Positions 2,632 through 58,105 of a DNA stretch of 64,000 nucleotides are shown here, in pieces. The translations under genes were made by a program, and so were the position numbers. The notes beneath the pieces are model-generated. The model was given only the letters and a program-made list of their open reading frames with translations. It made no database searches and had not been told where the DNA came from. Origin of the DNA: an uncultured Saprospiraceae bacterium (lineage in GTDB: Bacteria; Bacteroidota; Bacteroidia; Chitinophagales; Saprospiraceae). The stretch's first letter is position 1; each line of letters opens with the position of its first letter. The stretch lies in the NCBI GenBank assembly GCA_964471595.1, contig CAYYGN010000006.1, positions 26,494 through 90,493 of the forward strand, written 5' to 3'.

Positions 2632-4875
2632 TTATTTGTTTTCTAATTGAAATTGTTCGGCTTTTTCCCGAAATGCCGGCTTTTCGAACAGCCAGGAGCG
2701 GAGAGGTTCGCATTCGCACTCGGTCATTTTAACATTGATTGATTGTAGGGCTATTGTTAACTGGGCCATAGCTTCCTTCTCATTATTTTCAAAGGATGCT
2801 TTGCAGGCACGAAAATATGGAGCAAAATAGGCGTCCGGCGCCAGCGTTTCCAACAAAGTGCATTGTTCCTCCAAATCGGTCCAACTTCCGGTTTTAAAAT
2901 ACAAATCGGCCATTCTGTAGCGAAGAGAAACATGCCGGGGGTCCTTTTCTGCCGCCGTCAGGTAGGCGGCTTCAGCAGCATCGTAGAGCTCCTTCTGGAC
3001 AAATAGATACCCCAGCATGAAATAACCCGTAAATTGGTCGGGCTGCATGACCAGAGAGGTTTCGAAAGCGGTTTGGGCTTCGTCAAGGCGGCCGAGATTC
3101 TGAAGGCAGGCGCCGATGTTCAGCCAGGCCAGGTGGTCATCCGGTTGGGATTGCAGGGCCTGGTAATAAACGGCCATGGCCTCCTCCCATTGTTCCCTGA
3201 AGTAAAGCAGGCTTGCCTTGGCCTTTAGGGTGAAATTGTGGGTGGCATCAATGGCCAATGCCTGGTCAATAACCACGGACGCTTCATCAAAACGTTTGAA
3301 CTGCCGCGACAAATAATACCCCCACCACGCATGCGGCGCCAGCCACCCGGGGTCCATGTCCACCGCCTTGTGGTAATAAAATTGGGCGGAATCATATTCT
3401 ATGACCCGGAAGGCATAAATATCCATTAAAAAAAAGGCGGCAACGGCATTATCCGGTTCTTGGTCCAAAGAGGCTTGAAGGTGGTGGATGATGGGCTTGA
3501 TGGTGGCCCAATCCCGCTGGGTTCTGGCGGCATAATTCAAACGCAATCCCTGAAAGAGGTGGAGACGGGCCAGCAAGGTGCGAGTGCGGGGATCATGGGG
3601 GCCGAGCAATTCGGCGGCTCGTTCGAGGTAGGCGGGATATCCGGCAAATTGCTCTTTGAGCAAAGGGGCGGAGCGGGAAAGTTGCTGGATGTCTAGTTGC
3701 AGGTATTGATTCAGAGCATGCTGGGCGTCCATCTGGAGATGGGCGACAAGATCCCGCTGCAGATCGGCATGGATGGCGGCCAGGGAGGAGTCCTGCACCA
3801 GCAGATTGTAATAATGGTCGGCACAGTCGCCCGCAGGATGCAGCAGGCGTTTTTCCTCCAATGCGGTTCGGAAAGCCCTGTACAGGTCGAGCGTGACGGA
3901 ATCGGTGCCGGCCAGGAGCCGATCGTATTTGTTGGACCTCGGCAAGGCCGGCAGGATGGTCATGAGCTCCCTTCCTTTTTCGCGGTTCAACCGGGCGAGG
4001 GTAGGACCATGAATGCGGCCGATGATGCGGGTTTCGTCGCCCCGGACAAGCGGTACCTGTCGCACCGGCATCATGTCGCGGGACACCTCCTGTTTGACAT
4101 GGGCGGCCAATTCGTACAGGGAAATGAGTTCGTCCCCGTTCTGGTCGGCCAGCCCGAGAAGGCCCTCCAGCAGGTGCCAGGTAAAAGCGCCCTGCCCCCC
4201 TCCCCATTGCGGACCCTCGTGACTCAGTTCATGCGGCTGGCAGGACAGGATCTTGAGCTCGTGGGTGTACTGGCGGGCGAGGTCGTCGCCAAAGACACGG
4301 ATGCCGGCGTTGTCCTGGAGGCCGCCACTGCGGCAGGCGTCGGCGATGAAAAGGACCTCGCCTCCTTTTTCCACCGACATGGTGGTGATGGCCTCCTGCA
4401 GGGCGGAGAGGGCCAGGGCCCCCGACATGCTGTATTTGCGAACGACGGCGTCGGTGCACAGGAGATAGCCGGCGCGGGAGCCACCGGACTGTGCGTCGCC
4501 ATGCCCGGAAAAGAACAGGATGGCCCTCTCCCCGGGTCCTGTCTCCTCCTGGATCCAGTCGAGGGCAGCGACCACGTTGCCGTGAGTGGCATCGCCATTG
4601 AGCAGGAGGCGCAGGTGTTCGGCGGGGATTGCTCCTCCTGCCTCCGACAGGAGATAGGCCGCAAAAGCTTCTGCATCGCGATGGGCAAAGCGGAGATCTC
4701 CGAGGGTGGTATCCCGGTATTCGGAGATGCCGACGACGACGGCCCGGGTGACCGGAGGCGTGAAAGCGGGCCGGATCTGCGCCGCGAGGGACCCTGCCAT
4801 CATGACCAGTCCCGTCGCCATCAGGACGATCCGGCAGCCGATGAACGGCACGATGCGTCGGAGAGGGTGGGACAT
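2632..4875 (-). CDS. Exported caspase-like (peptidase C14) protease with C-terminal TPR repeats, paralog 2
   Basis: 747 aa ORF. Hydrophobic N-terminus ending ...SLAAQ. C14 motifs: RAVVVGISEYRD, FAHRDAEAF, FFSGHGD (His), FIADACRSGG (Cys), LSCQP..EGPQWGGGQGAFTWHLL. EF-hand-like loop DQNGDELISLYEL. The C-terminal half is TPR-like, e.g. AWLNIGACLQNLGRLDEAQTAFETSL and AEAAYLTAAEKDP. Confidence 0.85.
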   Translation of the reverse strand: MSHPLRRIVPFIGCRIVLMATGLVMMAGSLAAQIRPAFTPPVTRAVVVGISEYRDTTLGDLRFAHRDAEAFAAYLLSEAGGAIPAEHLRLLLNGDATHGNVVAALDWIQEETGPGERAILFFSGHGDAQSGGSRAGYLLCTDAVVRKYSMSGALALSALQEAITTMSVEKGGEVLFIADACRSGGLQDNAGIRVFGDDLARQYTHELKILSCQPHELSHEGPQWGGGQGAFTWHLLEGLLGLADQNGDELISLYELAAHVKQEVSRDMMPVRQVPLVRGDETRIIGRIHGPTLARLNREKGRELMTILPALPRSNKYDRLLAGTDSVTLDLYRAFRTALEEKRLLHPAGDCADHYYNLLVQDSSLAAIHADLQRDLVAHLQMDAQHALNQYLQLDIQQLSRSAPLLKEQFAGYPAYLERAAELLGPHDPRTRTLLARLHLFQGLRLNYAARTQRDWATIKPIIHHLQASLDQEPDNAVAAFFLMDIYAFRVIEYDSAQFYYHKAVDMDPGWLAPHAWWGYYLSRQFKRFDEASVVIDQALAIDATHNFTLKAKASLLYFREQWEEAMAVYYQALQSQPDDHLAWLNIGACLQNLGRLDEAQTAFETSLVMQPDQFTGYFMLGYLFVQKELYDAAEAAYLTAAEKDPRHVSLRYRMADLYFKTGSWTDLEEQCTLLETLAPDAYFAPYFRACKASFENNEKEAMAQLTIALQSINVKMTECECEPLRSWLFEKPAFREKAEQFQLENK

Positions 4876-6235: not shown

Positions 6236-8473
6236 TTATTTGAAGTGTTCGGATAGCAGGTTTTGAAATTCCTGCCGGGACAGGCAGGTCGCCAGGTTCT
6301 TTTTTTCATCCAGTATTTGCCGGTCGTTCAGTCCTGCGGCCATGGCCTGTTGCAAATGGGCGAGTGCCGGCTCCCACTGTTCCTGCAGAGCCGCCAAATA
6401 GAATTTGTAATACGAAATAAAATATCCACCCGGGGAGACCTGTTTTTCCATCTCCCACACCAGGGGTTGGGCCTGCACCCACTGTCCGGTTTCCAGATAA
6501 TAATCTATCAGATGAAGGTAGGGTTCAAGGCGTTTGGGGTCGATTTCCATGACCTTCCGGCAGTGGGGTTCCCCCTCATCCCAACGGCCCGATTTGACAT
6601 AGAGTTTGCAAAGGCCGAGGTGTGCCGGCACCTGCCGGTCCTTCATAGCCAGAGATTGCCGCAGAGCCTTCTCCGCTTCGACGGGATTTTGGAGGATGAT
6701 CCAGGCATAACCAATATTGGCGTGCAGGATGTAATCCTCCGGATCCAGGAGCAGGGCGTTTTGGTAGCCTTTGATGGCGGCGTGAAAATCGCGGATCCGG
6801 TAATGGTAATTGGCCATCGCCTTGGCGTGAAAGGCGTTACGGGAATCGCACTGATGCCCTGCGTCCAGCACCTGCCATGCCTCCTCCCGGTGGTCCGCTA
6901 CCTTGCTCAGGCATTCGCCGAAAAACGTATAGGGCATCACCCAATCCGGGTAGAGGCGGGTCACTGTTTGAAAATAATACCGGGCGGTGTCCACCATGAC
7001 CGGTTTTGTCCTTGAGCAGGCGGCTTCCATCAGATAAAAAAGAGCCAGTCGGTTTTCGGGATCGTGTGCCAGGACTTCCTGCAGGAGGGGCGCTATGGCG
7101 CCGTAGTGTTCCGGTCCTTTCTGCCCAAGGGATTCGAGATAGGCGAGGATGCCCCGGAAAAGATTTTTCCTGGTTTCCAATTCGCGGGTCAGTGCATGGC
7201 GGGCGCCCAGCACTTCCATCGCTTTGTCCAGGCGGGGAATGTAGAGCGCGTATTCGCGGATGCGCTCATCCCCGGGTTTGTTGAGCTCTTCTCCTTCCAC
7301 GAGGATCAATTGGCGCATCATCTGCTGGGCGTCTTCCTGGAGGGCGATCGCATATTCCCGGCGGAGGAAAGGGTGGATATCGGCCAGGGCACTTTCCTCC
7401 AGCAGCAACCGGAAATAATGGTCGGCGCAATCGTTGGCGGGTTCGGAGAAAGCTTTATCACGGAGGGCCTTGAAAAACAGCCGGTAATTGTCCAGGTGGG
7501 AGGAATCCACCCGGGCGATCAGGGCTTCCTCTTTCCGGCTTTTGGCATGGGTGGAGAGCAGAAGTTGTACCGGAGGCTTTTCGATCGTGCCCGCCAGAGA
7601 TGGGGAGGAGGGATCGATGAAGGCGATGGCCTGATCTTCTTCCTTGGCCGTGATGACGGGGTGCTGCCGGAGAGGGGCCAGGTCTTCATTGATGGCATCG
7701 TGCAGATAGCGCCTCAATTCGGAAGCCGTCACCACATCATCCTGGTTGTGGTCGGCCATGCCGGTCAAACCTTTGATGAGGTAGTGCGTGAATACGCCTT
7801 GTCCCCCGTTCCATTGGGGGCCTTCCTGGCTGAACTGATCGGGTTTGCAGGACAGGAGTTTGATCTCGTTGGTCGCCTGGCGCTGCAGGCCTTCACGGCC
7901 GAGGGCGCCTTCGTCGTCAATCCGCGCATCACCGAGTTTGCCGGCGCGACAGGCATCCAGGATGACGATAACCCGTGCTCCGATCTCGCTGGACAGGGTG
8001 GTGATCTCTTCCTGGAGATCCCGCAGCTTGATGGCGCCGCCCAGGGAGTAGGACTGGTCGGTGGCGTCATGGAGCAAAAGATACTCGGGCCGGGACACGG
8101 TTTTGCCCACATCGCCATGGCCGCTAAAGTAAAGGATGACCTGATCGCCCGCCCGGGATTGTTGGCGGAGCCAGTCCAGCATGGTGCGAAAACGCGCTTC
8201 GGTCGCATCGCCATTGGTCAGCAGTTGGATGTTTTCCGGTGCCACCTGTCCGAGGGCACCGGCCTCGAGCATCCGGACGAACAACGCCGCATCGCGATGG
8301 GCATACCGGAGATGGCCTACCCGGGGATCCTGATATTCGGAGATGCCGACGACGAGAGCCCGCGTCACTCCTTTTGGACGGATGGGCTGTACCTGTGCAT
8401 CCGCCCGGCAACAAGCGGCCAGCAGCCCTGTGAGGAGCAGATGCAGGATCTGTAAGGCAGGGCGCCGGGCCAT
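6236..8473 (-). CDS. Exported caspase-like (peptidase C14) protease with C-terminal TPR repeats, paralog 3
   Basis: The track ORF is 6236..8557. I place the start at the internal Met at 8473 (MARRPALQILHLLLTGLLAACCRADAQ, signal-like). Motifs: RALVVGISEYQD, YAHRDAALF, LYFSGHGD, VILDACRAGK, LSCKP..EGPQWNGGQGVFTHYLI. EF-hand-like loop DHNQDDVVTASEL. The C-terminal half is TPR-like. Confidence 0.85.
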   Translation of the reverse strand: MARRPALQILHLLLTGLLAACCRADAQVQPIRPKGVTRALVVGISEYQDPRVGHLRYAHRDAALFVRMLEAGALGQVAPENIQLLTNGDATEARFRTMLDWLRQQSRAGDQVILYFSGHGDVGKTVSRPEYLLLHDATDQSYSLGGAIKLRDLQEEITTLSSEIGARVIVILDACRAGKLGDARIDDEGALGREGLQRQATNEIKLLSCKPDQFSQEGPQWNGGQGVFTHYLIKGLTGMADHNQDDVVTASELRRYLHDAINEDLAPLRQHPVITAKEEDQAIAFIDPSSPSLAGTIEKPPVQLLLSTHAKSRKEEALIARVDSSHLDNYRLFFKALRDKAFSEPANDCADHYFRLLLEESALADIHPFLRREYAIALQEDAQQMMRQLILVEGEELNKPGDERIREYALYIPRLDKAMEVLGARHALTRELETRKNLFRGILAYLESLGQKGPEHYGAIAPLLQEVLAHDPENRLALFYLMEAACSRTKPVMVDTARYYFQTVTRLYPDWVMPYTFFGECLSKVADHREEAWQVLDAGHQCDSRNAFHAKAMANYHYRIRDFHAAIKGYQNALLLDPEDYILHANIGYAWIILQNPVEAEKALRQSLAMKDRQVPAHLGLCKLYVKSGRWDEGEPHCRKVMEIDPKRLEPYLHLIDYYLETGQWVQAQPLVWEMEKQVSPGGYFISYYKFYLAALQEQWEPALAHLQQAMAAGLNDRQILDEKKNLATCLSRQEFQNLLSEHFK

Positions 8474-8719
8474 GGCCGAGGTGTTTAGGCGAACCGAAAA
8501 TAGGGAATGGCGATCAATTCCCCGTGAAAATGTCACGAATGGCTCGCATTCGGCCATTTATTTGATATCAGAGACCAAGGTTACCCCTCAAACGATCGCC
8601 ACGGATATCCGGGTCAACAGGGCATGGCAGCCGGCAAAAACGGGCGCAGACAGGGAAATCCGGAAGCGGCATGTGTCGAGTCACTCAGCAGGAAAATGGA
8701 TTTTTTCGGGCACCGGGCA

Positions 8720-23536: not shown

Positions 23537-24871
23537 TTACTTGAGATGAACGAGGGTGGCCGCTATCGCATCGCGGAGTTTGGGGGACACTTTTTGATCA
23601 TCGGCAAAGGATTTCCACTGGTGGACCGTATCATGGATCGCGTGTATGGTCTCTTCCGCTTTTTTGTAATTTATGAACTTGCCGACCGCCAACAAATCCC
23701 CGAAGGAAATGTGGTTTCTTTTTCCGTTGACGCTCAAGGCATGCTGGCTGACCCACTGGTGTTCCGGTTGATACGCGTGGCAAATGTCGTAGGCTGGTGC
23801 CAGTTCCCACTTGCCGCCTTTTTTCAGGCGGAAGGCGAAATTTTTGGTGTGGTCGTCACAGTTACGGGCCAATACATTAAAAACCATCCTGCGGAACATT
23901 TGCTCGGTATCGGGATAGGTTAATGGGAGTTGCCACATGGTTTGGAACAATTGCTCGTAACTGAAGCTGGTGACCATGTTGTAATCATAGTGCATTAAGG
24001 CACAAAAGGATTGGACATGGTGTTTGACTTGGTTTTGTTCCCGGTCGAATCGCCTGGTCATGAAATGGGCTCTGCCGTTTTCTTCCAGTAAACGGGACGG
24101 CATCATTTGTATGCCACAGGCCGTAGCCATCCGGTAATAAGCCATTTCCACGCGGCCATACCCTTTGCTGGCGCCCAACTGCACATCACTCACTCCGTCC
24201 AGCTTGATTATCCAATGTTCAAATCCCTGGGGAGCACGGGTTTGTCCTGAACGCACCTCTCCGGTTTTTTCGTTGAAGGCGATGACCGCTTTGGGCCTTG
24301 CTCCTCCTGAAGAAGTACCGGTCTTCAAAATGTCCAGGATCGCCTTTCCCTGAAGAGTTTTGAGGTTGGTAGTGAGCTTTGCTTTACCGGATAAAATCCG
24401 GTGCGCCATCTCAACGAGGCTGTCGATATCCAGAGATGTGGTCGTCTTCGATTCCCTGAGAATGGCCGGTGCGAATTCCAGGGCACCCATTCCCCGGGAG
24501 CCTGTAAAGCACAACATTTCCACCGGATTCATGCTGTCGGGAGGACGGCCTTGCAGGGCCAACCACTGGTTGATCAGGGTATTTCCGTATCGGTCGGGCA
24601 ATACGTCGGCCAACAGTCCCGGCAAGCCTTTGAAGGTATCGAGTTCGGGATCGGCTTTTTTACGGAGAGCGGGAAAGCGGAAAATTTGTTTGTCGGCATG
24701 CAGGGGCATTTGAAAGGGAGCCAGCTCCCATCCCAGCCGTTTGAAGGCGGGGTCGTACTCGAAGGAGGCCAGGCCGGTGGCCTCATCCCAGGACACAGCG
24801 CCGGCCAGTTCTCCCCAGATATGTACCCAAGCGGTCTGCATGTTTAAGGATTCGGACGGATGTTGAGGCAT
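23537..24871 (-). CDS. hipA: Type II toxin-antitoxin system HipA-family kinase toxin
   Basis: It has a HipA N-terminal coupling domain. GTSSGGARPKAVIAF is P-loop-like. The catalytic motif is ARNCDDHTKNFAF. The ATG overlaps the upstream HTH gene stop by 1 nt (TAATG). Confidence 0.9.
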   Translation of the reverse strand: MPQHPSESLNMQTAWVHIWGELAGAVSWDEATGLASFEYDPAFKRLGWELAPFQMPLHADKQIFRFPALRKKADPELDTFKGLPGLLADVLPDRYGNTLINQWLALQGRPPDSMNPVEMLCFTGSRGMGALEFAPAILRESKTTTSLDIDSLVEMAHRILSGKAKLTTNLKTLQGKAILDILKTGTSSGGARPKAVIAFNEKTGEVRSGQTRAPQGFEHWIIKLDGVSDVQLGASKGYGRVEMAYYRMATACGIQMMPSRLLEENGRAHFMTRRFDREQNQVKHHVQSFCALMHYDYNMVTSFSYEQLFQTMWQLPLTYPDTEQMFRRMVFNVLARNCDDHTKNFAFRLKKGGKWELAPAYDICHAYQPEHQWVSQHALSVNGKRNHISFGDLLAVGKFINYKKAEETIHAIHDTVHQWKSFADDQKVSPKLRDAIAATLVHLK

Positions 24872-25191
24872 TATCGGGAATGGCGGGCTCTTTTGCGGCG
24901 GGACCGCTCGGCTTTGGCCAGCGCCAGCGGGCTGATGGTCGGCGTGATGTCAAAGGCATCCATAACGTGCAGAAGGTCGAGCACCCGCAACACCTGGATG
25001 AGCGTGGCCAGGGTGACGGTTTCGCCTCTTTCGAGAAGACTCAGGGTAGATCGGCTGATGCCCGCATCATGAGACAATGTTTCCTGGGTGCGGTTTTGTT
25101 CCAGCCGGTGATGCCTGACAAACCGGCCTATTTGGGCGGAAATGGCTTTGTCGCTCATGGCCCGCCAATTGGTGAATGATTTATCATTCAT
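24871..25191 (-). CDS. hipB: XRE-family helix-turn-helix antitoxin (HipB-like)
   Basis: The track ORF is 24871..25482. The conserved HTH protein begins at MNDKSF (25191). The HTH is RLEQNRTQETLSHDAGISRSTLSLLERGE. It lies immediately upstream of hipA. Confidence 0.8.
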   Translation of the reverse strand: MNDKSFTNWRAMSDKAISAQIGRFVRHHRLEQNRTQETLSHDAGISRSTLSLLERGETVTLATLIQVLRVLDLLHVMDAFDITPTISPLALAKAERSRRKRARHSR

Positions 25192-25638
25192 AAAATAATA
25201 TTTTAGCCATTTATGACTTGTTTGCCATACAAATATAGGCATTTTTTGCCCGAAGTGCACTATCCGGCTTTCGGCGTAGGTTGGATGACCCATCCGGCTC
25301 ATTAGGACTTTTGTGGAAGCGTTTTCATGGGCCAGCGTGTAGGCCACGATGGTCGTTACGCGGTGTTCGGCCAAGGAATGGGTAATGGGTCCCCTGGCCA
25401 TTCCCGAGTCCAGTCGGCGATGGCGATAGGCGGGTTCAATCCTCCTGGACGCTGACCTGCAGGCTGAAGGACGGCGATGCATGCCCCGGGAGGGCGGAGC
25501 GCAAGCTCTCCGGGTCGCCGGGGATGAGTCTGAGACGGACGGTATCTATCATTTCCGGCATCATGAAAAGGGACCATCATCGAATGGCATCTGGTGCCGG
25601 TGGCAATGCATCATATCCGGGTTTTCCAAGAGAGGCAT

Positions 25639-33435: not shown

Positions 33436-33618
33436 GGTAGTATGTTGTGGTGTTTAGGTAAGCAGGCGCCGGCATCGATTTTGGGTATTGCGCAGGGGCA
33501 ACATTTCGCGTCAATACTGATGGCCTGAACGAAGGTAATGAAGAGCCACAAATCTGCCACATTCGCGTCACCCGCCTTGGTGACTGGTCAATGTCCCCGT
33601 TCGCTCTTGGGTGGTCCT

Positions 33619-34707
33619 TCATGGGATGAATTTGTCAAAGGCTTGGCCATTATACCTGAATACCCCGTTTTCGTGGGTGCCCAGCCACAGGTCTCCGTCA
33701 TTGTCTTTGTAAAGGCAATAAACGGTTATGTTTGCTTCTTTGATCTGAATCGGATAGTGGTGGATCTTTTCACCGTCATACTTCCACACACCGTTCATGT
33801 AGGTCGCTATCCACAAGTTGTCGTCGTTGTCTTTGATGATGGACAAAAATTCATTCAGATCACCATCCTTTTTTCCGTCCAGACAACCTATGCTTTTGAA
33901 CCGTTGGTAAAACGTTGGCTTGTCCGGGTGGAAATTCGTGGACGAGGGATGGCTGTAAACGGTGTAGCGATATGAAGTATTGAACCAAAAATCACCATTC
34001 CTGTCTTCTGCCATGGAACGCACCCCATTGGCAGGTCCTTCGTGTATTTCTGTCACATCCTGTTCTGAAATCCAGTCAAACGATTCGCCGTCAAAACGGC
34101 AAACACCCAGCGTTGACGTACCAAACCAGATGTTTTGCCGGCTGTCTTTGTAAATGCAATAAACAGCATAAGGATTCGCATAATGGGGGTGTTTTTGAAT
34201 GTAGTCTTCGCCGAGTCCGGATTTCGGGATTTTCAACTGGTGCAGATTCTTTCCATCCCAGCGGTATATGTATCCTGAATAGTCAGGACTCTTGAACCAA
34301 AGGTCATCCGGATGGGATAGCCATGAGCCATTCAAACGCATCGTTGCGGTCAAATTCAAAAAACCGTTTCCGTTGTATCGGCACAATCCCTGACTGGTAT
34401 TGATATAAATGTTTCCCTCAGCGTCTTCTTGTATTTCTTCCACCCTGTTGTCGGGTAATCCGTCTATGGTCGTAAAGTGTACGATGGACTTTCCGTCATA
34501 TTTGTACAGACCTTCCTGCCAACTGCCAAACCAGTAATTGTTTTTCTTGTCCTGGTAGATGACCATGATGTTGTTGCTCAATTCTTTGGTGGTATCACCT
34601 GTTGCCAGCGGTAGTTTTTCGGATTTGACGGATGGCGTACTGGGCTGCCCGTTGCACGATGTCAAAACCATAAGGATGCCAATGAGGATGATCCTGTGTA
34701 CATGCAT
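33619..34707 (-). CDS. Lipoprotein made of two-component-regulator propeller (Reg_prop) repeats
   Basis: The N-terminus MVLTSCNGQ carries a lipobox. It has repeated N(I/Y)WFG(T/S)...G(L/V)..(Y/F)DG motifs (NYWFGSWQEGLYKYDG, NIWFGTSTLGVCRFDG, DLWLGTHENGVFRYNG). Confidence 0.7.
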   Translation of the reverse strand: MHVHRIILIGILMVLTSCNGQPSTPSVKSEKLPLATGDTTKELSNNIMVIYQDKKNNYWFGSWQEGLYKYDGKSIVHFTTIDGLPDNRVEEIQEDAEGNIYINTSQGLCRYNGNGFLNLTATMRLNGSWLSHPDDLWFKSPDYSGYIYRWDGKNLHQLKIPKSGLGEDYIQKHPHYANPYAVYCIYKDSRQNIWFGTSTLGVCRFDGESFDWISEQDVTEIHEGPANGVRSMAEDRNGDFWFNTSYRYTVYSHPSSTNFHPDKPTFYQRFKSIGCLDGKKDGDLNEFLSIIKDNDDNLWIATYMNGVWKYDGEKIHHYPIQIKEANITVYCLYKDNDGDLWLGTHENGVFRYNGQAFDKFIP

Positions 34708-34902
34708 GGTTTGTCAATTTGAAGTTTACAGGATTGTCATGGTGTGGCCTGACGGTTCTCAGTTAGGCGCAAGCAGGGAATTGACCAACGAACTGTCTGC
34801 AATTATTATTAAGCTAAATTAAATATGATTAATTGTGTAGGTCTATTAGGTGGCATATTTTCATTGATCTGGTAATTTATTTTCTTCAGCTAATAGCATG
34901 GT

Positions 34903-35226
34903 TTATTTCCATTTTTCCTTGGGGGAGTGAGTGCTTTTCGATGTAAAAGACATTTTGTTTTCAAATAAGAATTTTCGTAATTTAGGAATGGTGCTTTTTC
35001 CCATCCCGTGGAGTGTCAATATTTCCTTTTCACTAAAGGTGGATAGTTTTTCCAAAGTTGTTATTCCTTCTCTTTCCAACGCCCTTCTGGCAGGTGCTCC
35101 AAGTAAGGATAAGAAATGGTCGTCGGGTTTCCGTTCTTCTTCACAAATTGGGCAAACCGGACAGTCAGAAATTTTGGAAAATTTGTGTCCATTTTTGCAT
35201 ATTCTCAATACTTCATTGGTCTCCAT
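34903..35226 (-). CDS. Small Zn-ribbon + RNA polymerase alpha-subunit C-terminal-domain-like (HhH) protein
   Basis: The Cys/His cluster CKNGH...CPVCPIC is followed by LGAPARRALEREGITTLEKLSTFSEKEILTLHGMGKSTIPKL. The second part is a helix-hairpin-helix resembling RpoA CTD. The gene is AT-rich. Confidence 0.65.
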   Translation of the reverse strand: METNEVLRICKNGHKFSKISDCPVCPICEEERKPDDHFLSLLGAPARRALEREGITTLEKLSTFSEKEILTLHGMGKSTIPKLRKFLFENKMSFTSKSTHSPKEKWK

Positions 35227-35336
35227 TTTCAGTTGAATTGTTTTTTCGAAGTGTCTTTTCTAAATATCCGAAAATGTGTTGGTGCTTTGGCGATGTGGCA
35301 GATAGACAGCCATCACCATCCACCCCTGTTAGTTCT

Positions 35337-35975
35337 TCAGACCCCCATAGGTGCCTTCAGTTTTTTCAACGAGACCTTGTCCAACTCCACCAGGACCCGG
35401 CATTGGAGGCCTTCCAGCGTCAAAATGATACGGGACCGGTTGTGGCGATCGGTGACCTGGCCCTGGTAGCCGGCCAACGGACCGGACATGATCTCCACCC
35501 GGTCACCGGGATGAAAGGCCTCCCGCACCAGCAGGACCGGCTTCTCCAAACCGGCCAGGATACGGATCAGTTGCACCTCACGCTCGCACAAACACACGGG
35601 ATCCCGTCCGAACGTCAGGTAGCGGTACACATTGGGCAGCCGGAACACCTCCTTGCGGCGGTCCTCGTCCACTTCCACAAACACATAGCGGTGAAACATG
35701 ACCATGTCCACCTTTTTCTTGCGGTCACACCAGATCCTGACTTGTCGCTGTACCGGCACATAGGCCGGTATGCCCAGCCGGGTCAACTGGGCTGCCACCT
35801 TCTTTTCCGTCCGGGGTCGTACCAAAAGGACATGCCAGGCTCTCTCCGTTTGCACCACGGGTTCCTGCCTGCCGGTGATGCGGGGAGCAGGCAACAGGAG
35901 GATGGGTTGGCCGGTCGGCATGGGAGCAAGGATTTTGTCCGGGAGCATGCCTCCTCCGAAGAGGTGGACCCACAC
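35337..35975 (-). CDS. UpxY-family (NusG-like) transcription antiterminator
   Basis: WHVLLVRPRTEKKVAAQLTRLGIPAYVPVQRQVRIWCDRKKKVDMVMFHRYVFVEV is an NGN domain. GDRVEIMSGPLAGYQGQV is a KOW motif. The true start is uncertain: Met at 35921, or a GTG just upstream of ...QTERAWHV. Confidence 0.85.
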   Translation of the reverse strand: MWVHLFGGGMLPDKILAPMPTGQPILLLPAPRITGRQEPVVQTERAWHVLLVRPRTEKKVAAQLTRLGIPAYVPVQRQVRIWCDRKKKVDMVMFHRYVFVEVDEDRRKEVFRLPNVYRYLTFGRDPVCLCEREVQLIRILAGLEKPVLLVREAFHPGDRVEIMSGPLAGYQGQVTDRHNRSRIILTLEGLQCRVLVELDKVSLKKLKAPMGV

Positions 35976-36074
35976 ACAGCGTGACGCATGATCCGTATGG
36001 GCCAGGGGAGGCGCTACGCCCGCCTAAAAATAGGGAAAATCAATAATTGTGGTGATGATGACCATCTATTTTAA

Positions 36075-36715
36075 GTCGAGTTGTACGGCGACCTTTTACG
36101 TCATGACGTTTACTAAGACTCCAGGGGTTGGTAAACGTGTAGGTAATTTTTTGGCTGGTGCCAGGCTCATTGGTTTCGCCCGTTCTGCGTCGAGCTGTAT
36201 GCCATTGAGGTCCGTCAGGGGTTGTTCCTTTTCGAGGTGGCAAAAAGGAACCAAAAACCACTTGTCGCCGTAAGGCTCGCGGTGCTCCAGCCGATGATGC
36301 TGATCTACTGGAGTTCCGTCATTGCGCATGGCGTAAGGCCGCCTCGAGGGCCAGCGCTGGTTTTCAGCGGGCGTGGTTTTCGGGGCCTGAGCAAGTGTGT
36401 TCTGCCTGGCAAAGGAGCATTCGCTCGTTCCGGCTCCCCGCTGAAAAAGGCGCACACTTGAAGGGTTGGCCCTCTCAGTGCCAGTGGCGAGCTGGACGGC
36501 GACGTTTTTTGTTCTGACATTATTCTTTTTCGTCTCGACCCTCAGACGATGAGTTGTATGCCCTTGAGGTCCGCCAGGATGGAAGGAGGAATATCCTGGG
36601 CTATGGCGAATTGGGGGCCCCAACCCCTCATTGGTTTCACCCGTTCGGTGTCGAGCTGTGCGGCGACGTTTTACATCATGACGATTACTAAGCCTCCAGG
36701 GATAGGTAAACGTGT
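36075..36715. repeat. Scrambled direct-repeat family in a long non-coding gap (five copies of a GTCGAGCTGT-type core plus longer shared blocks)
   Basis: Hand alignments follow. 36075-36140 vs 36650-36715: 58/66 identical. 36166-36198 vs 36627-36659: 30/33. 36189-36219 vs 36548-36578: 26/31. 36486-36508 vs 36650-36672: 20/23. All copies are in the same orientation with irregular spacing (about 60-115 nt units at both ends of the gap). Confidence 0.75.
36224..36251. other. Stable hairpin (9 bp stem) inside the repeat-containing gap
   Basis: GTTCCTTTT (36224-36232), loop 36233-36242, AAAAGGAAC (36243-36251). No flanking U-tract on either strand, so it is not called as a terminator. Confidence 0.5.
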
Positions 36716-36807
36716 TGATTGCCCGGATCAAGCCGGGATGGTGGCAGACCGTATTCCGACCTGGTAGCGCGGACTGAAAAGGTTGTGGTTGGCCGGAAGG
36801 CAAGTGA

Positions 36808-37950
36808 TCAATCCACTACCATGGCGGCGCGGTCGAGCGTCTGTTGCTCCATATCGGCGGGGAGTTCGCGGAAGTTGTACTGCTGGTCGCGGAGCCGGGG
36901 TTCAAAGCCCGCATCCCGGATGGCCTGCTGGATCCCGTCGGCCGTAAACCGGAACGGAGCGCCGGCCGCGCTGACCACATTTTCCTCGATCATGATGCTG
37001 CCCCAATCATTGGCGCCGGCATGCAGGCACACCTGGGCCACCTGTTTGCCGACCGTCAGCCAGGACGCCTGGACATTCACGACGTTGGGGAGCATGATGC
37101 GGCTCATGGCGATCATGCGGACATACTCGTCACCCGTGCAGGTATTGCGGGCTCGTTTCAGACGGCGCAGGAGGGTGCCCTCGTCCTGGAAGGGCCAGGG
37201 GATAAAGGCCAGGAACCCTTTGGCATCGGCCGGTTTTTTGGCCTGCACCTCGCGGAGGCGGACGAAGTGCTCCATCCGCTCCAGGTTGGTCTCGATATGG
37301 CCAAACATCATGGTGGCTGAGGTGGTCAGGCGGAGCTGGTGGGCCGCTTCCATGACGGCCAGCCACTCGTCGCCGCCGCATTTTCCTTTGGAGATCAGGC
37401 GGCGCACCCGGTCGTCGAGAATTTCGGCGCCGGCACCGGGCAGGCTGTCCAGGCCGGCGTCCATCAAGGCCCGGAGGACTTCCGTATGGGTGCTTTTCTC
37501 GAGTTTGGTGATGTGCGCGATCTCGGGCGGTCCGAGGGCATGGAGTTTCAGACGGGGATAGAGGCGCTTGAGTTCGCGGAATAGGTTGACGTAATAGTCA
37601 AGCCCCAGGTCGGGATGGTGACCGCCCTGAAGCAGGAGCTGCTCCCCGCCCAGGCGAAAAGTCTCCTCTATTTTCTGCTTGTAGTCCTCGATCGAAGTGA
37701 CATAGGATTCTTCATGACCGGGGCGGCGGTAGAAGTTGCAGAATTTGCAATTGGCCACACATACATTAGTGGTGTTGGCATTGCGGTCGATGATCCAGGT
37801 GACGGTCTGGCCGGGGACGTGGTGCTGGCGCAGAGCGTTGCCGACAATCATCAACTCGGCGGTCGGGGCCTGCTCGAACAAGAACACCCCTTCCCCGGCG
37901 GAGAGGAATTCGCGGCGGAGGGCGCGTTGCAGCAGGTCGTGAATTTCCAT
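36808..37950 (-). CDS. CofH/MqnC/MqnE-family radical SAM enzyme (futalosine-pathway type)
   Basis: The start is trimmed to MEIHDLLQRAL at 37950. The radical-SAM cluster motif is NVCVANCKFCNF. The protein is ~380 aa with the family-typical ...GANDWGSIMIEENVVSAAG near the C-terminus. Confidence 0.85.
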   Translation of the reverse strand: MEIHDLLQRALRREFLSAGEGVFLFEQAPTAELMIVGNALRQHHVPGQTVTWIIDRNANTTNVCVANCKFCNFYRRPGHEESYVTSIEDYKQKIEETFRLGGEQLLLQGGHHPDLGLDYYVNLFRELKRLYPRLKLHALGPPEIAHITKLEKSTHTEVLRALMDAGLDSLPGAGAEILDDRVRRLISKGKCGGDEWLAVMEAAHQLRLTTSATMMFGHIETNLERMEHFVRLREVQAKKPADAKGFLAFIPWPFQDEGTLLRRLKRARNTCTGDEYVRMIAMSRIMLPNVVNVQASWLTVGKQVAQVCLHAGANDWGSIMIEENVVSAAGAPFRFTADGIQQAIRDAGFEPRLRDQQYNFRELPADMEQQTLDRAAMVVD

Positions 37951-37985
37951 AGGAGGGTATAAAGATAAGGCGCCGTCCCGAGCGG

Positions 37986-38186
37986 TCAGAATTTGAGGAT
38001 GCCTTTGGCGAGGAGGTAAGGCAGGAGGATGTACAAAAAGCTGTCCCGGATCAGGTAATAGAGAAAGATCGCGATGACCACTTTCCACCCGGCGGCTTTC
38101 AGCATGGCCTTGAAGCCCTGTTCCTTGTAGATGACCAGGTACTTGCGGATCCAGCGGGGGGTGATGGCGTCGCGAAACTTACCCAC
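37986..38186 (-). CDS. Small hypothetical membrane protein
   Basis: 66 aa (MGKFRDAITPRWIRKYLVIYKEQGFKAMLKAAGWKVVIAIFLYYLIRDSFLYILLPYLLAKGILKF). It has a basic N-terminus then hydrophobic helices, and fits neatly between its neighbours on the same strand. Confidence 0.45.
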   Translation of the reverse strand: MGKFRDAITPRWIRKYLVIYKEQGFKAMLKAAGWKVVIAIFLYYLIRDSFLYILLPYLLAKGILKF

Positions 38187-38237
38187 GGTGCGTGATTGGA
38201 TTCTCCATAAGACAATTCGGCATCCGGATTGTTCGGC

Positions 38238-39326
38238 TTATTGTTGGGCTTTCGAGGCCAGCCAGAGGCTGACGGCAGTAAAGACGAGATTGGGAATCCA
38301 GACCCCGAGCAGGGGCGAAAGGCTTTGGTTCATGGCGAAGGTGGTGGAAAACCGGGAAAGGAAAATGTACACCGCCCCAATCCCGATCCCGATGGCGAGG
38401 TGGAGGCCGAGACCACCGCGCACCTTGCGGGAGGCAACGGCCACACCGATCAGGCTGAGGATGAGAATGGTAAAGGGGTCGGCCGTGCGGCGGTGCTTTT
38501 CGACCTCGTATTTGCGGGCATTGCCTGCACCCCGCACCTTGAGCTTGTCGATGTAACGGATCAGCTCGGGCGTGGTCATCATGTCTTTCTGGTCCACGTA
38601 TTCCACAAAATCGGAAGGGTGGATATTGAGCACCGTGTCGAGCTCCTTGCCCATACCGGAAATGAGCTGTTCGCCGAGGGAGTCGATTTGGCGGATTTCG
38701 TAATGGCGCAACCGCCAGGAGCCGGCGGCTTCCTGCCATTGGGCGGAGCGCGCTTTGAGCAGGCTGGTGAGCTGCTGCCCTTCATATCGCTCGAGCCGCA
38801 CGTCCACCATGGTCGAGTCGGCTTTCCGGTAAAAACTGATGTAGATCTTCTCGCCCGGCCGCAGGAACATGTGAATGTCATTGGAGCGGCCTTTCTCGTT
38901 GGTGGTCCAGATGTACTGATGTTCGAAATCGAGGCGGTGCTTGTTGGCGTTGGGAATGAAAAAATGGTTGCCGGCGAGATGACCGGCGGCAAAAACGGAG
39001 GCGCCGATCAGGTAGGGGCGGGCCAGGCGCCAAAAGCTCATCCCCGCATTGAACATGGAGATGATCTCCGAATTGTACGCCATGCGGGAGGTGAAAAATA
39101 TAACGGAAATCAGGGCGTAAATAGGCCATAGCAGGCCGTTGATGAAGGGGAGAAAATGGATGTAATAGGTGGAGAGGACCTCGCCGAAACCCAGCTTGTT
39201 GACGATGAATTTCTCGACCTTCTCGCTCAGGTCCACGGCGATGGATACGAGGGAAAAGATCAGCGCCGTGAACAGGTAGGTGGTGCTGTACTTGCGCAGG
39301 ATGTAGCGGTCGAGGGTCTTCAGCAT
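38238..39326 (-). CDS. LptF/LptG-family LPS export permease
   Basis: The start is trimmed to MLKTLDRYILRKYSTTYLF at 39326, the family-typical N-terminus. It has 6 TM segments with a large periplasmic loop. Confidence 0.85.
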   Translation of the reverse strand: MLKTLDRYILRKYSTTYLFTALIFSLVSIAVDLSEKVEKFIVNKLGFGEVLSTYYIHFLPFINGLLWPIYALISVIFFTSRMAYNSEIISMFNAGMSFWRLARPYLIGASVFAAGHLAGNHFFIPNANKHRLDFEHQYIWTTNEKGRSNDIHMFLRPGEKIYISFYRKADSTMVDVRLERYEGQQLTSLLKARSAQWQEAAGSWRLRHYEIRQIDSLGEQLISGMGKELDTVLNIHPSDFVEYVDQKDMMTTPELIRYIDKLKVRGAGNARKYEVEKHRRTADPFTILILSLIGVAVASRKVRGGLGLHLAIGIGIGAVYIFLSRFSTTFAMNQSLSPLLGVWIPNLVFTAVSLWLASKAQQ

Positions 39327-39327
39327 T

Positions 39328-40455
39328 TCACAGGTGTTGGCTGAGGGCGGGGACGAGGCGTTCTTTCCAGGCGGCGAACGATCCCTGCAGGATCCGCTCT
39401 CTGGCTTCCCTGACCAGCCAAAGGTAAAAACCGAGGTTGTGCTGGGAGGCGAGCATGGGCCCCAACATTTCACCGCTGTGGAAAAGATGCCGCAGGTAGG
39501 CCCGCGACGTGGTCCTGCTGACTTCTGTGGGACCTTCCGGGTCAATGGGGTTGAAGTCGCTCTCCCATTTCTTGTTGCGGATATGGATGATGCCTTCGCG
39601 GGTGAAGAGCAGTCCGTGGCGGGCATTGCGCGTGGGCATCACACAGTCGAACATGTCGATGCCGAGGGCGATGCCTTCGAGGATATTGGCCGGGGTACCA
39701 ACGCCCATGAGATAACGGGGCCGGTCGGCCGGAAGGAGGGGGCAGACCAGCGCGGTGATGCGATACATTTCTTCGGCCGGTTCGCCGACCGAAAGGCCTC
39801 CGATCGCGATGCCCGGGGTGTCCTGAGCGGCGAGGAAAGCGGCTGATTCGGTGCGCAGGTCGTCATAGGTGCCTCCCTGGATGATGGGAAACAGCATCTG
39901 CGGGTAGCCGTAGAGCGGTGGCCGGTTGTCGAAATGGTTTTTGCAGCGCTCCCACCACCGGTGGGTGAGTTCCATGCTTTTCCTGGCGTAGGCATGGTCG
40001 CACGGATAGGGCGGACACTCGTCAAAAGCCATGATAATGTCCCCGCCGATGCTGCGCTGGATATCCATGGCGCGTTCGGGGGTGAACAGATGCCTGGATC
40101 CGTCGATGTGCGACTGGAATATGACGCCTTCCTCGGTGATTTTGCGCGATTGGGCGAGACTGTACACCTGGTATCCCCCGCTGTCGGTGAGGATGGGGCG
40201 GTCCCAGCCCATGAAGCGATGCAGGCCCCCTGCCTGTTCGAGGATATCGGTGCCGGGTCGGAGATACAGGTGATAGGTATTGCCCAGGATGATGCGGGCG
40301 TCCACCACTTCGCGGAGTTGAGGCTGGGTGACGGCCTTGACGGTGCCGGCTGTACCCACAGGCATGAATATGGGGGTGGGGATGTCGCCGTGTCCGGTAG
40401 TGAGGATCCCGGCGCGGGCCGAGGAGCCCGGATCCGTGGCCTGGAGGGTAAACAT
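39328..40455 (-). CDS. tgt: tRNA-guanine(34) transglycosylase (queuine tRNA-ribosyltransferase)
   Basis: The start is trimmed to MFTLQATD at 40455. Motifs: TPIFMPVGT, LTDSGGYQV, FDCVMPTRNARHG, SRAYLRHL. The canonical zinc-site CxCxxC is absent (see findings). Confidence 0.9.
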   Translation of the reverse strand: MFTLQATDPGSSARAGILTTGHGDIPTPIFMPVGTAGTVKAVTQPQLREVVDARIILGNTYHLYLRPGTDILEQAGGLHRFMGWDRPILTDSGGYQVYSLAQSRKITEEGVIFQSHIDGSRHLFTPERAMDIQRSIGGDIIMAFDECPPYPCDHAYARKSMELTHRWWERCKNHFDNRPPLYGYPQMLFPIIQGGTYDDLRTESAAFLAAQDTPGIAIGGLSVGEPAEEMYRITALVCPLLPADRPRYLMGVGTPANILEGIALGIDMFDCVMPTRNARHGLLFTREGIIHIRNKKWESDFNPIDPEGPTEVSRTTSRAYLRHLFHSGEMLGPMLASQHNLGFYLWLVREARERILQGSFAAWKERLVPALSQHL

Positions 40456-41620: not shown

Positions 41621-41791
41621 TTATCCAATAAAATGTGCGGCATATTCCGGACCCATACCGGACATTTCCGGCCATAGATGTGTCTCTGGCGTCCATTCTC
41701 ATGTCATTTGGCTGAAAATGTCCGGTGATCGTCCTGTTTGCCCCTTGCCCTGCCCGCTACTTTTGCCTTCACAAAACATTATTGATCTGCC

Positions 41792-57222: not shown

Positions 57223-57601
57223 CGGGCGTACCATGCAGACAAGCAACGCCTTGTCGGTACGCTTCGCGCAAAAAATGCTAATGCCTTTTTTGGGCTAAAA
57301 GGAACCAAGCCAGACGAGGCGTCGGGACCGGATGTTGACATAGCTTCTGCGGTGGCGCATGGAGCAAAGCCCGCCTATACTGACGCTATAGCGGGTTAAC
57401 CGGAGCTACGCAATCTTGGATCCGGGCATGTCCCGGAGAGACATCGTCGGGACTGAGCGACAACGAAGTATGGCGAAGGTCGCTTATGCAAAGACCATCG
57501 ATGATGGGCTTTTAGCTCTTAAACGGGGTTGATGGAAATGCGCTTTAACGGAATTTTAAGCTTCAAACCTTGGAGGGCAGGACAGAGGTACCTACCTTTG
57601 T

Positions 57602-58105
57602 ATGTTGTTCCTTATGAACCTGTTCCGATCAATCACCGCTTCTTTGATGGCCCTGACCCTACTGGTCAGTACCACCGGTCTGTCGGTACATGCCGTGTAT
57701 TGTCTCTGCAAGGGGGAATTGTCCTATTCCCTCGTTCATCTTGAAGTGGGCGAAATGGCTTGTGCCATGTCCTCCGAAGAGACTGAACCCTGTTGCGGGT
57801 CCAGTGAGGGATGCGGTTTGGACAGCCGGGCGGCGGGTTGTTGCCGGGATGCCGGCGAAGACCATGATTGTCGTTCGGAAGAAACCATCTATGCACGGCT
57901 CGCTGCCGTGTTTGTCACCCCGTTGGACCAACAGGACGATTCGGCGTCCGACCGGGGGGATTTGGTAGCCGGAACATGGCCTGCGCAGGAGAGCCACCTC
58001 TACATTTCCGGCCTTTTGCTAAACCGGGACGAAGGACCGCCTTTGCGGGGAGGTCCTTGGTCGCCATGCCCGGCTTACCTGGCCTTCCGTCAATTCCGCT
58101 GTTAG
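57602..58105 (+). CDS. Small Cys-rich membrane-anchored protein (resembles the Bacteroidota 'HYC_CC_PP' type found upstream of TonB receptors)
   Basis: An N-terminal TM helix is followed by ...LSVHAVYCLCKGE, EPCCGSSEGCG, AAGCCRD and a later GPP. The family name is recalled from memory and was not searched. The gene lies 42 nt upstream of the TonB-dependent receptor ORF on the same strand. Confidence 0.5.
   Translation: MLFLMNLFRSITASLMALTLLVSTTGLSVHAVYCLCKGELSYSLVHLEVGEMACAMSSEETEPCCGSSEGCGLDSRAAGCCRDAGEDHDCRSEETIYARLAAVFVTPLDQQDDSASDRGDLVAGTWPAQESHLYISGLLLNRDEGPPLRGGPWSPCPAYLAFRQFRC

Follow-up and report, generated by a model that had tools for sequence, protein, structure and literature searches.

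A repeat-filled gap between mqnC and a upxY-family gene of a Saprospiraceae bacterium, read as a degenerate array of a non-coding unit

The DNA considered here is a stretch of 64,000 nucleotides from an uncultured Saprospiraceae bacterium, the whole of which I call the window. Within it an array of repeats sits between two minus-strand genes. The gene upstream of the array is the radical-SAM gene mqnC (36808 to 37950, its true ATG at 37950), encoding cyclic dehypoxanthinyl futalosine synthase, as judged by TIGR03699 (427.8 bits) and the Pfam domains CofH_C and Radical_SAM. The other gene (35337 to 35948) encodes an antiterminator, a UpxY-family NusG paralogue of 203 amino acids (NF033644, 114.5 bits with a cut-off of 100; Pfam NusG and KOW). 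An earlier reading, made from the sequence only, had the gap begin at 35976. That boundary is not fixed: gene callers put the start of UpxY at 35948 or at 35921, the latter giving 194 amino acids, both variants are present in the protein collection, and the domain match begins only at residue 47 of a 212-aa open reading frame. The genes downstream of upxY specify an HhH protein, a Reg_prop protein and RibD_C, and they do not form a polysaccharide operon. The idea that the gap encodes RiPP precursor peptides beside a radical-SAM enzyme was considered and rejected, the enzyme being MqnC of the futalosine pathway.

The gap was first described as holding four pairs of direct repeats with a common core, in permuted order, and in this the sequence-only reading was right. 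All four pairs are found where it placed them (self-BLAST E-values from 5e-20 to 3e-4). The longest pair consists of X1, at the UpxY-proximal end (36075 to 36140), and X2, at the mqnC-proximal end (36650 to 36715), which agree at 58 of 66 positions (E=5e-20). X1 contains a 12-nt palindrome, ACGTCATGACGT (36098 to 36109), which is lost in X2. A shorter block of the same kind, X3 (36484 to 36521), matches X2 at 22 of 25 positions (E=3e-4). Y1 (36166 to 36198) and Y2 (36627 to 36659), each taken with its core, are identical at 30 of 33 positions (E=1e-8 by self-BLAST), and Z1 (36189 to 36219) and Z2 (36548 to 36578), likewise with their cores, at 26 of 31, with a BLAST core of 25 out of 28 (E=7e-6). 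The spacing is 359 bp between Z1 and Z2 and 575 bp between X1 and X2. The order is Z1-Y1-X1 at one end and X2-Y2 at the other.

A core resembling GTCGAGCTGT is present in all of the blocks; on the minus strand, X2 ends in the form ACAGCTCGAC. There is also a sixth copy, an inverted copy of the X core (36264 to 36280), which pairs with part of X3 (36487 to 36503) across 206 nt, although the two arms match at 14 of 17 positions, near chance level by self-BLAST. A 25-nt core pattern has two matches in the window and none in 100 shuffles. Neither a pattern scan nor self-BLAST found further copies of the repeats elsewhere in the 64 kb, and TRF makes no tandem-repeat call in the window, the array being too decayed for it.

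It is a second sequence that gives the blocks their relationship to one another. The sole other homologue found, L091, is a 564-bp metagenome contig (ENA ERZ27258551, k141_551123), 79.5% identical to the window over 429 nt. It runs into a second unit, joined head to tail to the first, with a period of 385 bp and 82% identity between the two: copies of one unit following one another, as in a tandem array. Z2, with which the best-preserved unit of the window opens on the minus strand, aligns to the beginning of the L091 unit; Z1, with which a second, rearranged unit of the window opens, aligns to the beginning of the second unit of L091. In sequence this second L091 unit falls between two stretches of the window, 'a' and 'Y', and so ties the blocks into one family. 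X3 is near-invariant in a three-way alignment (A1), its X version kept in both L091 units, and the inverted core copy is conserved in L091 at every position.

The unit is not uniformly conserved. Its most conserved part (36344 to 36572, 229 nt) is 92% identical to L091 and includes a 46-nt identical block (36344 to 36389) and an 11-bp inverted repeat (36361 to 36371 and 36437 to 36447). Its hypervariable part (36281 to 36343) belongs to an adjoining stretch of 84 nt (36260 to 36343) with 68% identity, both percentages being uncalibrated figures from two lineages only. Within the hypervariable part, a hairpin (36285 to 36313) shows one compensatory change from C-G to A-U. Another hairpin (36224 to 36251) has an invariant stem of 9 to 11 bp and a loop that varies among the window, L091 and strain L090. 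The conserved core beside a variable stretch, the invariant stem and the compensatory change, as compared from sequence, hint at constraint.

Such features would suit a structured small RNA, tandem copies of one, or a cis-acting RNA made by transcription reading through from mqnC into upxY. Read-through is possible, since a scan of the minus strand found no intrinsic terminator after mqnC, nor any terminator-like site. Folding energy also speaks for RNA, with a z-score of about -3 relative to shuffles, but the two strands fold equally well (-3.0 and -3.1), so that neither is favored, and this is what one would expect from inverted repeats at the level of DNA. The TAnnTTTG promoter box is missing from both strands of the array, no terminator-like end was found, the covariation comes from two to three sequences, and closely related strains do without the element. 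Rfam 15 gives nothing but noise in the window and in L091, at most 21 bits against gathering scores of 40 to 91, and ARAGORN finds no tRNA in the region. A family of small RNAs, one of the possibilities first raised for the gap, thus has some conserved stems in its favor, and against it the want of any Rfam match or promoter motif. I regard an RNA of any of these kinds as unlikely, though worth keeping in mind.

Then there is the question of protein. It had been suggested that the gap is a decayed tandem coding repeat on the minus strand, interrupted by stops. The tandem part of that suggestion is borne out by L091 and its 385-bp period, and stops do interrupt the frame that was translated. 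A different minus-strand frame, though, is open for 236 codons (36096 to 36803), a length reached by just 0.3% of dinucleotide shuffles. On the plus strand, frames of 74 amino acids (P1, 36049 to 36273) and 72 amino acids (P2, 36549 to 36767) cross all of the repeat blocks in frame and free of stops, and there is one ATGA start/stop overlap among the plus-strand frames. Against all this, mismatches between the window and L091 fall on the three codon positions 22, 21 and 19 times, with no excess at the third. GC at the third position of the long frame is 0.55, compared with 0.65 to 0.79 in neighboring genes, the three positions are nearly alike (0.60/0.52/0.55), and the codon-usage log-likelihood is negative. 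In L091 the frame is broken by a 26-nt insertion, and the start codon of P2 is missing. Searches of 5.8 billion and of 1.84 billion proteins produced as their sole match the spurious open reading frame of L091, neither P1 nor P2 is in the protein collection, and Pfam and NCBIfam offer no match at E<=0.1 and a single 12.8-bit chance match at E<=1. The minus-strand frame is not credible as a gene.

The 72-aa peptide does draw three matches when HMMER is run against the 1.84 billion representatives (E=1e-5 to 1e-18), but these were rejected as spurious open reading frames over near-identical tandem DNA (satellite) repeats. Their scores are inflated by 4 to 12 identical units, a single unit being worth about 25 bits, and the one match checked at the level of DNA, L122, showed no DNA similarity to the array. 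One of the three lies on a 7.2-Mb chromosome, where a 660-aa product is spread over a gene range of 16 kb; I take this for a gene model of the eukaryotic kind, with splicing. Translation of the repeats does give strings like KVAAQL, as in the N-terminus of UpxY, and fragments of a upxY paralogue were considered as their source; a tblastn of UpxY against the gap stayed at chance level (best E=0.39, with the single 832-bp sequence as subject), and the idea was rejected. An intact open reading frame in relatives had been named as the mark of a pseudogene; the relatives do have intact genes at this position, five of them, and these are unrelated to the sequence of the gap. The notion of a pseudogene, or of coding sequence generally, is largely refuted, and decayed protein-coding sequence on either strand I consider very improbable.

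The array was also suggested to be part of the leader of UpxY, perhaps a site for recruitment of the protein. The likeness to known systems is evident enough. In the 5' leaders of capsule operons of Bacteroides that are led by upxY, UpxY prevents premature termination of transcription (PMC7819879, citing Chatzidaki-Livanis et al. 2009). The array resembles these leaders in its position before a UpxY-family gene of the same strand and in its many hairpins. There the resemblance ends: the genes that follow are not a polysaccharide operon, the scan for terminators turned up no such site on the minus strand, and upxY orthologues in sister strains do without an array. L081-L084, L089 and L115 have UpxY proteins that belong to one 90%-identity cluster with that of the window, yet their genes have a different upstream region, free of the array. 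Moreover, the only promoter-like box lies between the array and upxY. This is TATTTTTA (36025 to 36032, minus strand), a near-match to the -7 box of the Bacteroidota type, situated outside the array within 89 nt common to relatives. The motif TAnnTTTG is found at many gene starts in the window, and on these grounds TATTTTTA is the probable promoter of upxY. With orthologous genes that lack the array and a likely promoter downstream of it, the leader proposal is not supported.

What do relatives have in place of the array? All of the repeats fall within a lineage-specific segment of 758 bp (36036 to 36793): homology to L081-L084 and L089 stops at 36794 and restarts at 36035. Close relatives have five genes here instead, clustered in 3.7 kb of the opposite strand and encoding a response regulator, a histidine kinase, a BOF protein, a PepSY-like protein and a second BOF protein. 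The segment shows no similarity to that cluster, either by tblastn or by blastn with a word size of 7, and the possibility that it is a remnant of the five genes was rejected on that account. Gene order around the array agrees with that in the relatives. The two flanks differ in their divergence from them (95.6% and 86% identical), which places the array on a recombination boundary. The array is a presence/absence polymorphism, in which sister lineages carry the two-component-system/BOF/PepSY genes instead.

In the sequences searched beyond this locus it is scarcely to be found. Within 1.17 Mb of Saprospiraceae and other Bacteroidota loci, the only occurrences are the same segment in contigs of the same lineage and L091. 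Viral contigs (searched with four patterns), plasmids and phages have no match. When metagenomes (JGI) were scanned for the extended core, 23 loci came up, each matching the 23-nt pattern alone, and these were set aside as chance. Neither synteny nor similarity was seen at eighty genome loci anchored on MqnC, which are too distant to be informative.

One might wonder whether the array exists as assembled, or whether a chimeric or collapsed join within it is an artefact of assembly. No Logan contig spans 36241 to 36266: L118 stops at 36241, and L087, L088, L090 and L123 all begin at 36266. The unequal divergence of the flanks would also fit a false join. Nonetheless, both halves turn up again, 98.8-100% identical, in Logan assemblies made independently from the data of four or more sequencing studies, and in three sample sets the halves occur together, either within the same runs or across sister runs submitted together (sister runs being recognized by their adjacent accessions). 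Relatives share the gene order, and on each side of the break the repeat blocks are contained in single contigs. It is hardly believable that the array is an artefact. The break itself appears to mark a stretch of 34 nt (36237 to 36270; the length assumes k=31) that probably has two or more sequence contexts among the populations sequenced, and the window has no second copy of it. The real copy number and arrangement of the array may therefore differ from those assembled.

That all Logan assemblies break beside the inverted core, implying a second context, lends some interest to the view that the array acts as DNA. The extended cores of 18 to 25 nt, five direct and one inverted, could be sites for a regulator or a recombinase, and the promoter of upxY might be controlled by their copy number or by inversion, that is, by phase variation. 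The core recurs at irregular spacing, its inverted copy, 206 nt from X3, is fully conserved in L091, and the probable upxY promoter directly follows the array. In Bacteroides fragilis, capsule loci are preceded by promoter segments that lie between inverted repeats and can be inverted (the Mpi system), and a segment of about 206 bp between short inverted repeats, upstream of upxY, looks similar. Unlike those segments, however, this one has arms that match at only 14 of 17 positions, near chance level, and contains no promoter motif, and the repeats of the array are mostly direct. The roughly 60 large open reading frames of the window that were scanned (about 107 amino acids or more) yielded no domain of a recombinase or transposase. 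Nor is there evidence of both orientations: L118 is continuous through the X3 arm, and a mixed orientation is not seen there. Control of upxY through DNA sites of this sort seems to me improbable. Other DNA elements were dropped: a DGR template and variable repeat, the differences between X1 and X2 not being specific to adenine, and retrons, integron attC sites and iterons, there being no RT, integrase or Rep domain in the scanned open reading frames and the spacing of the cores being irregular.

The same inverted repeat can be viewed as the ends of a dispersed element like a MITE or REP, repeatedly inserted, in which case the 240 bp from 36264 to 36503 would be bounded by terminal inverted repeats of 17 nt. 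Like a MITE, the array is small, non-coding and patchily distributed among close relatives; in the window as in L091, the imperfect inverted repeat encloses a body of 206 nt that is conserved; these two lineages have the element while closer relatives lack it at this locus, and the second context presumed for 36237 to 36270 might be another insertion. Unlike a MITE, it has no target-site duplication visible in the sequence, and no dispersed copies were found in the 64-kb window or in the 1.17 Mb of Saprospiraceae and other Bacteroidota loci. The units of L091, moreover, stand head to tail and not as independent insertions. I find this quite improbable.

I propose that what fills the gap is a degenerate array, lying at a variable junction of the chromosome, whose unit of about 360-385 bp is non-coding and rich in hairpins, and I would put the probability of this at roughly 0.55. 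Read on the minus strand, each unit would comprise sub-repeats of two kinds, both ending in the core ACAGCTCGAC. One would be a Z-core followed by a Y-like stretch; the other would be an X-core followed by a body of about 270 nt, containing the conserved part, the hypervariable part, the inverted core copy and the hairpin. A single unit (36578 to 36220) would then survive almost whole in the window, with a rearranged unit, Z1-Y1-X1 (36219 to 36075), on one side of it and a fragment, X2-Y2 (36715 to 36627), on the other. Two things could account for the permuted block order. Sub-repeats would recur within units as well as between them, and the shared core may have been the site of gene conversion or of unequal recombination that joined X to Y, as at the X2-core-Y2 junction. 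The same process may have refreshed some of the blocks, those that are 88-91% identical. I infer both that recombination at the core did the scrambling and that the array is nearly neutral.

Such an array has its closest likeness in degenerate intergenic tandem or mosaic repeats, of the minisatellite-like or BIME type. These too are non-coding and rich in inverted repeats, with sub-repeats in varying order, lie between convergent or co-oriented genes and are prone to recombination and to changes in copy number; the head-to-tail arrangement in L091 is of a piece with this. The array differs from them in that its unit is long (about 360-385 bp) and its units are only 82-91% alike; apparently it is also local and of low copy number, not dispersed through the genome, with no REP-like consensus and no RAYT-type transposase seen.

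A bolder view is that the Saprospiraceae have in this unit a structured non-coding element not yet described, either an RNA or a scaffold for recombination of DNA, which propagates in tandem, varies in copy number within populations and tunes the genes led by UpxY. Its signatures would be the 229-nt conserved core, the conserved stems and the systematic break at 36241 to 36266. I give this rather slim odds. I read the array as a non-coding relic, repetitive and of low copy number, neither the remnant of a gene nor the leader of UpxY, whose effect on its neighbors is modulatory at most: a local curiosity.

If the degenerate-array reading holds, the array provides no new mechanism and serves mainly as the marker of a hotspot of recombination and indels, where in one Saprospiraceae lineage repetitive non-coding DNA has taken the place of a two-component-system/BOF/PepSY module. 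It would be of use in strain typing and in understanding flexible genome junctions beside genes for NusG paralogues. Its importance would grow if the unit turns out to be transcribed or variable in copy number: a specialized antiterminator, in a poorly studied branch of its phylum, would then have a new non-coding element directly upstream.

The sequence-only reading had described a family of direct repeats in the gap between a radical-SAM gene (mqnC) and the gene of a NusG paralogue (upxY), and self-BLAST finds them exactly where it had put them. Blocks X1 (36075-36140) and X2 (36650-36715) agree at 58 of 66 positions (E=5e-20), Y1 (36166-36198) and Y2 (36627-36659) at 30 of 33, and Z1 (36189-36219) and Z2 (36548-36578) at 26 of 31, while X3, a short copy of X, lies at 36484-36521. 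Read on the minus strand, every block terminates in a ACAGCTCGAC-like core, of which a sixth copy, inverted, is found at 36264-36280. A 25-nt pattern for the core matches the window twice and 100 shuffles not at all, and neither this pattern nor self-BLAST turns up further repeat copies elsewhere in the 64 kb.

In this uncultured Saprospiraceae bacterium the array has only minus-strand genes as its neighbours. The gene for MqnC (36808-37950; TIGR03699, 427.8 bits, plus CofH_C) truly starts at ATG 37950 and encodes 380 aa, its longest ORF (36808-38088) being over-extended. The same is true of the longest ORF for upxY (35337-35975), whose protein belongs to the UpxY family (NF033644, 114.5 bits, cut-off 100): it starts not at 35975 but at 35948 or 35921, giving 203 or 194 aa, and public annotations hold both variants.

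Then there is the evidence of the relatives. The 90%-identity clusters of the window's MqnC, UpxY and LptF/G include proteins from many other assemblies, and in six contigs that have no array (L081-L084, L089 and L115) the interval from mqnC to upxY is occupied by five genes on the opposite strand, divergent from upxY (L081:7290-10682): a response regulator (225 aa), a histidine kinase (421 aa), a BOF protein (128 aa), a PepSY-like protein (141 aa) and another BOF protein (123 aa). The window's lineage lacks this module wholly at 36036-36793. DNA homology to the relatives runs, at 95.6%, up to 36794, 14 nt beyond the mqnC stop, and restarts at 36035 at 86% (86-89% for the upxY-side flank; compared over 33600-39700); all the repeats fall within the non-homologous 758 bp. 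Because the two flanks differ in this way, the array would mark a recombination boundary. Neither tblastn nor blastn with a word size of 7 detects similarity between the 758 bp and the relatives' 3.7-kb cluster. Relatives, then, do carry genes where an intact counterpart of a pseudogene had been looked for, but the gap is no remnant of them; to judge by these alignments, it is an alternative and unrelated filling of the same junction.

It is hard to believe that the array is an artefact of assembly. Its mqnC-side half recurs in Logan contigs L085 and L086 (100% identical) and L118-L121 (99.3-99.5%, L118 extending as far as 36241), and its upxY-side half in L087 and L088 (100%), L090 (98.8%) and L123. 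These contigs are drawn from several studies, and the array is taken to be real because its two halves turn up together, in single runs or in runs whose accessions are adjacent. Still, no Logan contig crosses 36241-36266, and four of them, from four runs (L087, L088, L090 and L123), begin precisely at 36266. A 26-nt overlap with k=31 would imply that a 34-nt exact repeat (36237-36270) exists in two or more contexts; any second match to it in the window is of 13 nt at most. The assembly may fall short of the array's true length, or 36237-36270 may be repeated somewhere else.

The array's 235-aa minus-strand ORF, used as a query, found just one protein, from L091, a 564-bp ENA metagenome contig. 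The DNA of L091 matches window 36572-36170 with 79.5% identity and then begins the same sequence again: the contig is a head-to-tail repeat with a period of 385 bp and units 82% identical to each other. Its identity to the window is uneven, 92% over 36344-36572 (within which a 46-nt block is identical), 68% over 36260-36343 and 81% over 36170-36259. The inverted copy of the core is kept at 100%, a hairpin at 36224-36251 keeps its stem and varies in its loop, and another at 36285-36313 shows one compensatory change, C-G to A-U. The second unit of L091 falls between the stretch that follows Z2 in the window and the Y blocks, so the separate blocks all belong to one unit family.

Read on the minus strand, the array therefore consists of a fragment, X2-core-Y2, then of a unit that is almost whole, with Z2, X3, the conserved body, the variable part, the inverted core and the hairpin, and lastly of a rearranged unit, Z1-core-Y1-X1. 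The core-Y junction of the fragment repeats that of Z1-core-Y1 (core plus Y 30/33 identical), with X replacing Z upstream. X2-core-Y2 is what one would expect if recombination had taken place at the 10-nt core in common.

Might the units be a decayed tandem coding repeat, as had been suggested? Tandem they are, as L091 demonstrates. A frame of the minus strand runs without a stop for 236 codons, a length reached by only 0.3% of dinucleotide shuffles, and plus-strand ORFs of 74 and 72 aa are open across every repeat block. Against coding, mismatches between window and L091 are spread evenly over codon positions (22/21/19), as is GC (0.60/0.52/0.55, with GC3 of 0.65-0.79 in neighbouring genes); the codon log-likelihood is negative; and in L091 the long minus-strand frame is broken by a 26-nt insertion and the start codon of the 72-aa ORF is absent. 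The array ORFs have no genuine relative in word-index searches of 5.8 billion proteins or an exhaustive HMMER search of 1.84 billion representatives, and no Pfam or NCBIfam family matches them at E<=0.1. Three HMMER matches to the 72-aa peptide (P0028-P0030; E down to 1e-18), one on an apparently eukaryotic chromosome, were rejected as spurious ORFs over near-identical satellite-like repeats, their significance inflated because scores sum over identical units. The evidence against coding outweighs that in favour, and a coding past is highly improbable.

A structured or small RNA is unlikely. On either strand the folding beats that of shuffles by about 3 standard deviations, an excess for which DNA-level inverted repeats would account no less than RNA, and covariation among two or three sequences is anecdotal. 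Rfam gave noise-level matches only, for window and L091 alike, and within the array there is no tRNA, tmRNA or promoter box, nor a terminator-like site on the minus strand. An array for binding or recombination at the DNA level is very unlikely. A low-copy MITE-like element is about as improbable: nhmmer, run with the array and L091 as queries on 1.17 Mb of fetched loci, recovered nothing but L091 and, from contigs of the window's own lineage, the same segment; a pattern scan of JGI metagenomes gave chance matches only; viral contigs, plasmids and phages gave none; and the window's large ORFs contain no recombinase or transposase domain.

UpxY proteins prevent premature termination in 5' leaders preceding upxY (PMC7819879), and the array had been offered as such a leader element. 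Two observations speak against this. One is that the array is absent beside orthologous upxY in sister strains. The other concerns the Bacteroidota -7 motif TAnnTTTG, which has 20 sites in the window and closely precedes many genes, 10-110 nt 5' of their start codons and on the correct strand, for example at 41758 before a multicopper oxidase gene and at 57593 before a gene starting at 57602; it is a useful local promoter marker. Its sole near-match within 35900-36850 is TATTTTTA (36025-36032, minus strand), in the 89 nt common to the window and the array-less relatives, so the array most likely lies upstream of the upxY promoter.

What lies 3' of upxY is not a polysaccharide operon: a 107-aa protein with Zn-ribbon and helix-hairpin-helix (NF005841, 132.9 bits), in a low-GC patch (34700-35300, 28-44% GC) directly downstream, then a Reg_prop protein and RibD_C. 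L081-type relatives carry a different, 124-aa ORF on the opposite strand at the equivalent of this patch, which would make it a second variable spot. Genes at about 20.8-35.2 kb have a GC3 of 0.38-0.67 (one 0.72), against mostly about 0.67-0.80 elsewhere in the window. At 23537-25482 a HipA-like kinase (444 aa) and then an HTH_3 protein (203 aa) form a HipBA-type toxin-antitoxin pair of unusual order, and two large paralogous caspase-domain (Peptidase_C14/CHAT) plus TPR proteins (2632-4875 and 6236-8557) enclose two small ORFs that match no family.

The array can be assigned to no described family and is in kind an ordinary intergenic repeat relic. Conservation of core and stems, a frame open over 236 codons and the systematic break of the assemblies lend something beyond that a slight probability. 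The reading I favour, at somewhat better than even odds (about 0.55), is that of a lineage-specific, degenerate, non-coding tandem array, its sub-repeats reshuffled by recombination, at a recombination and indel hotspot where sister lineages have a two-component-system module.
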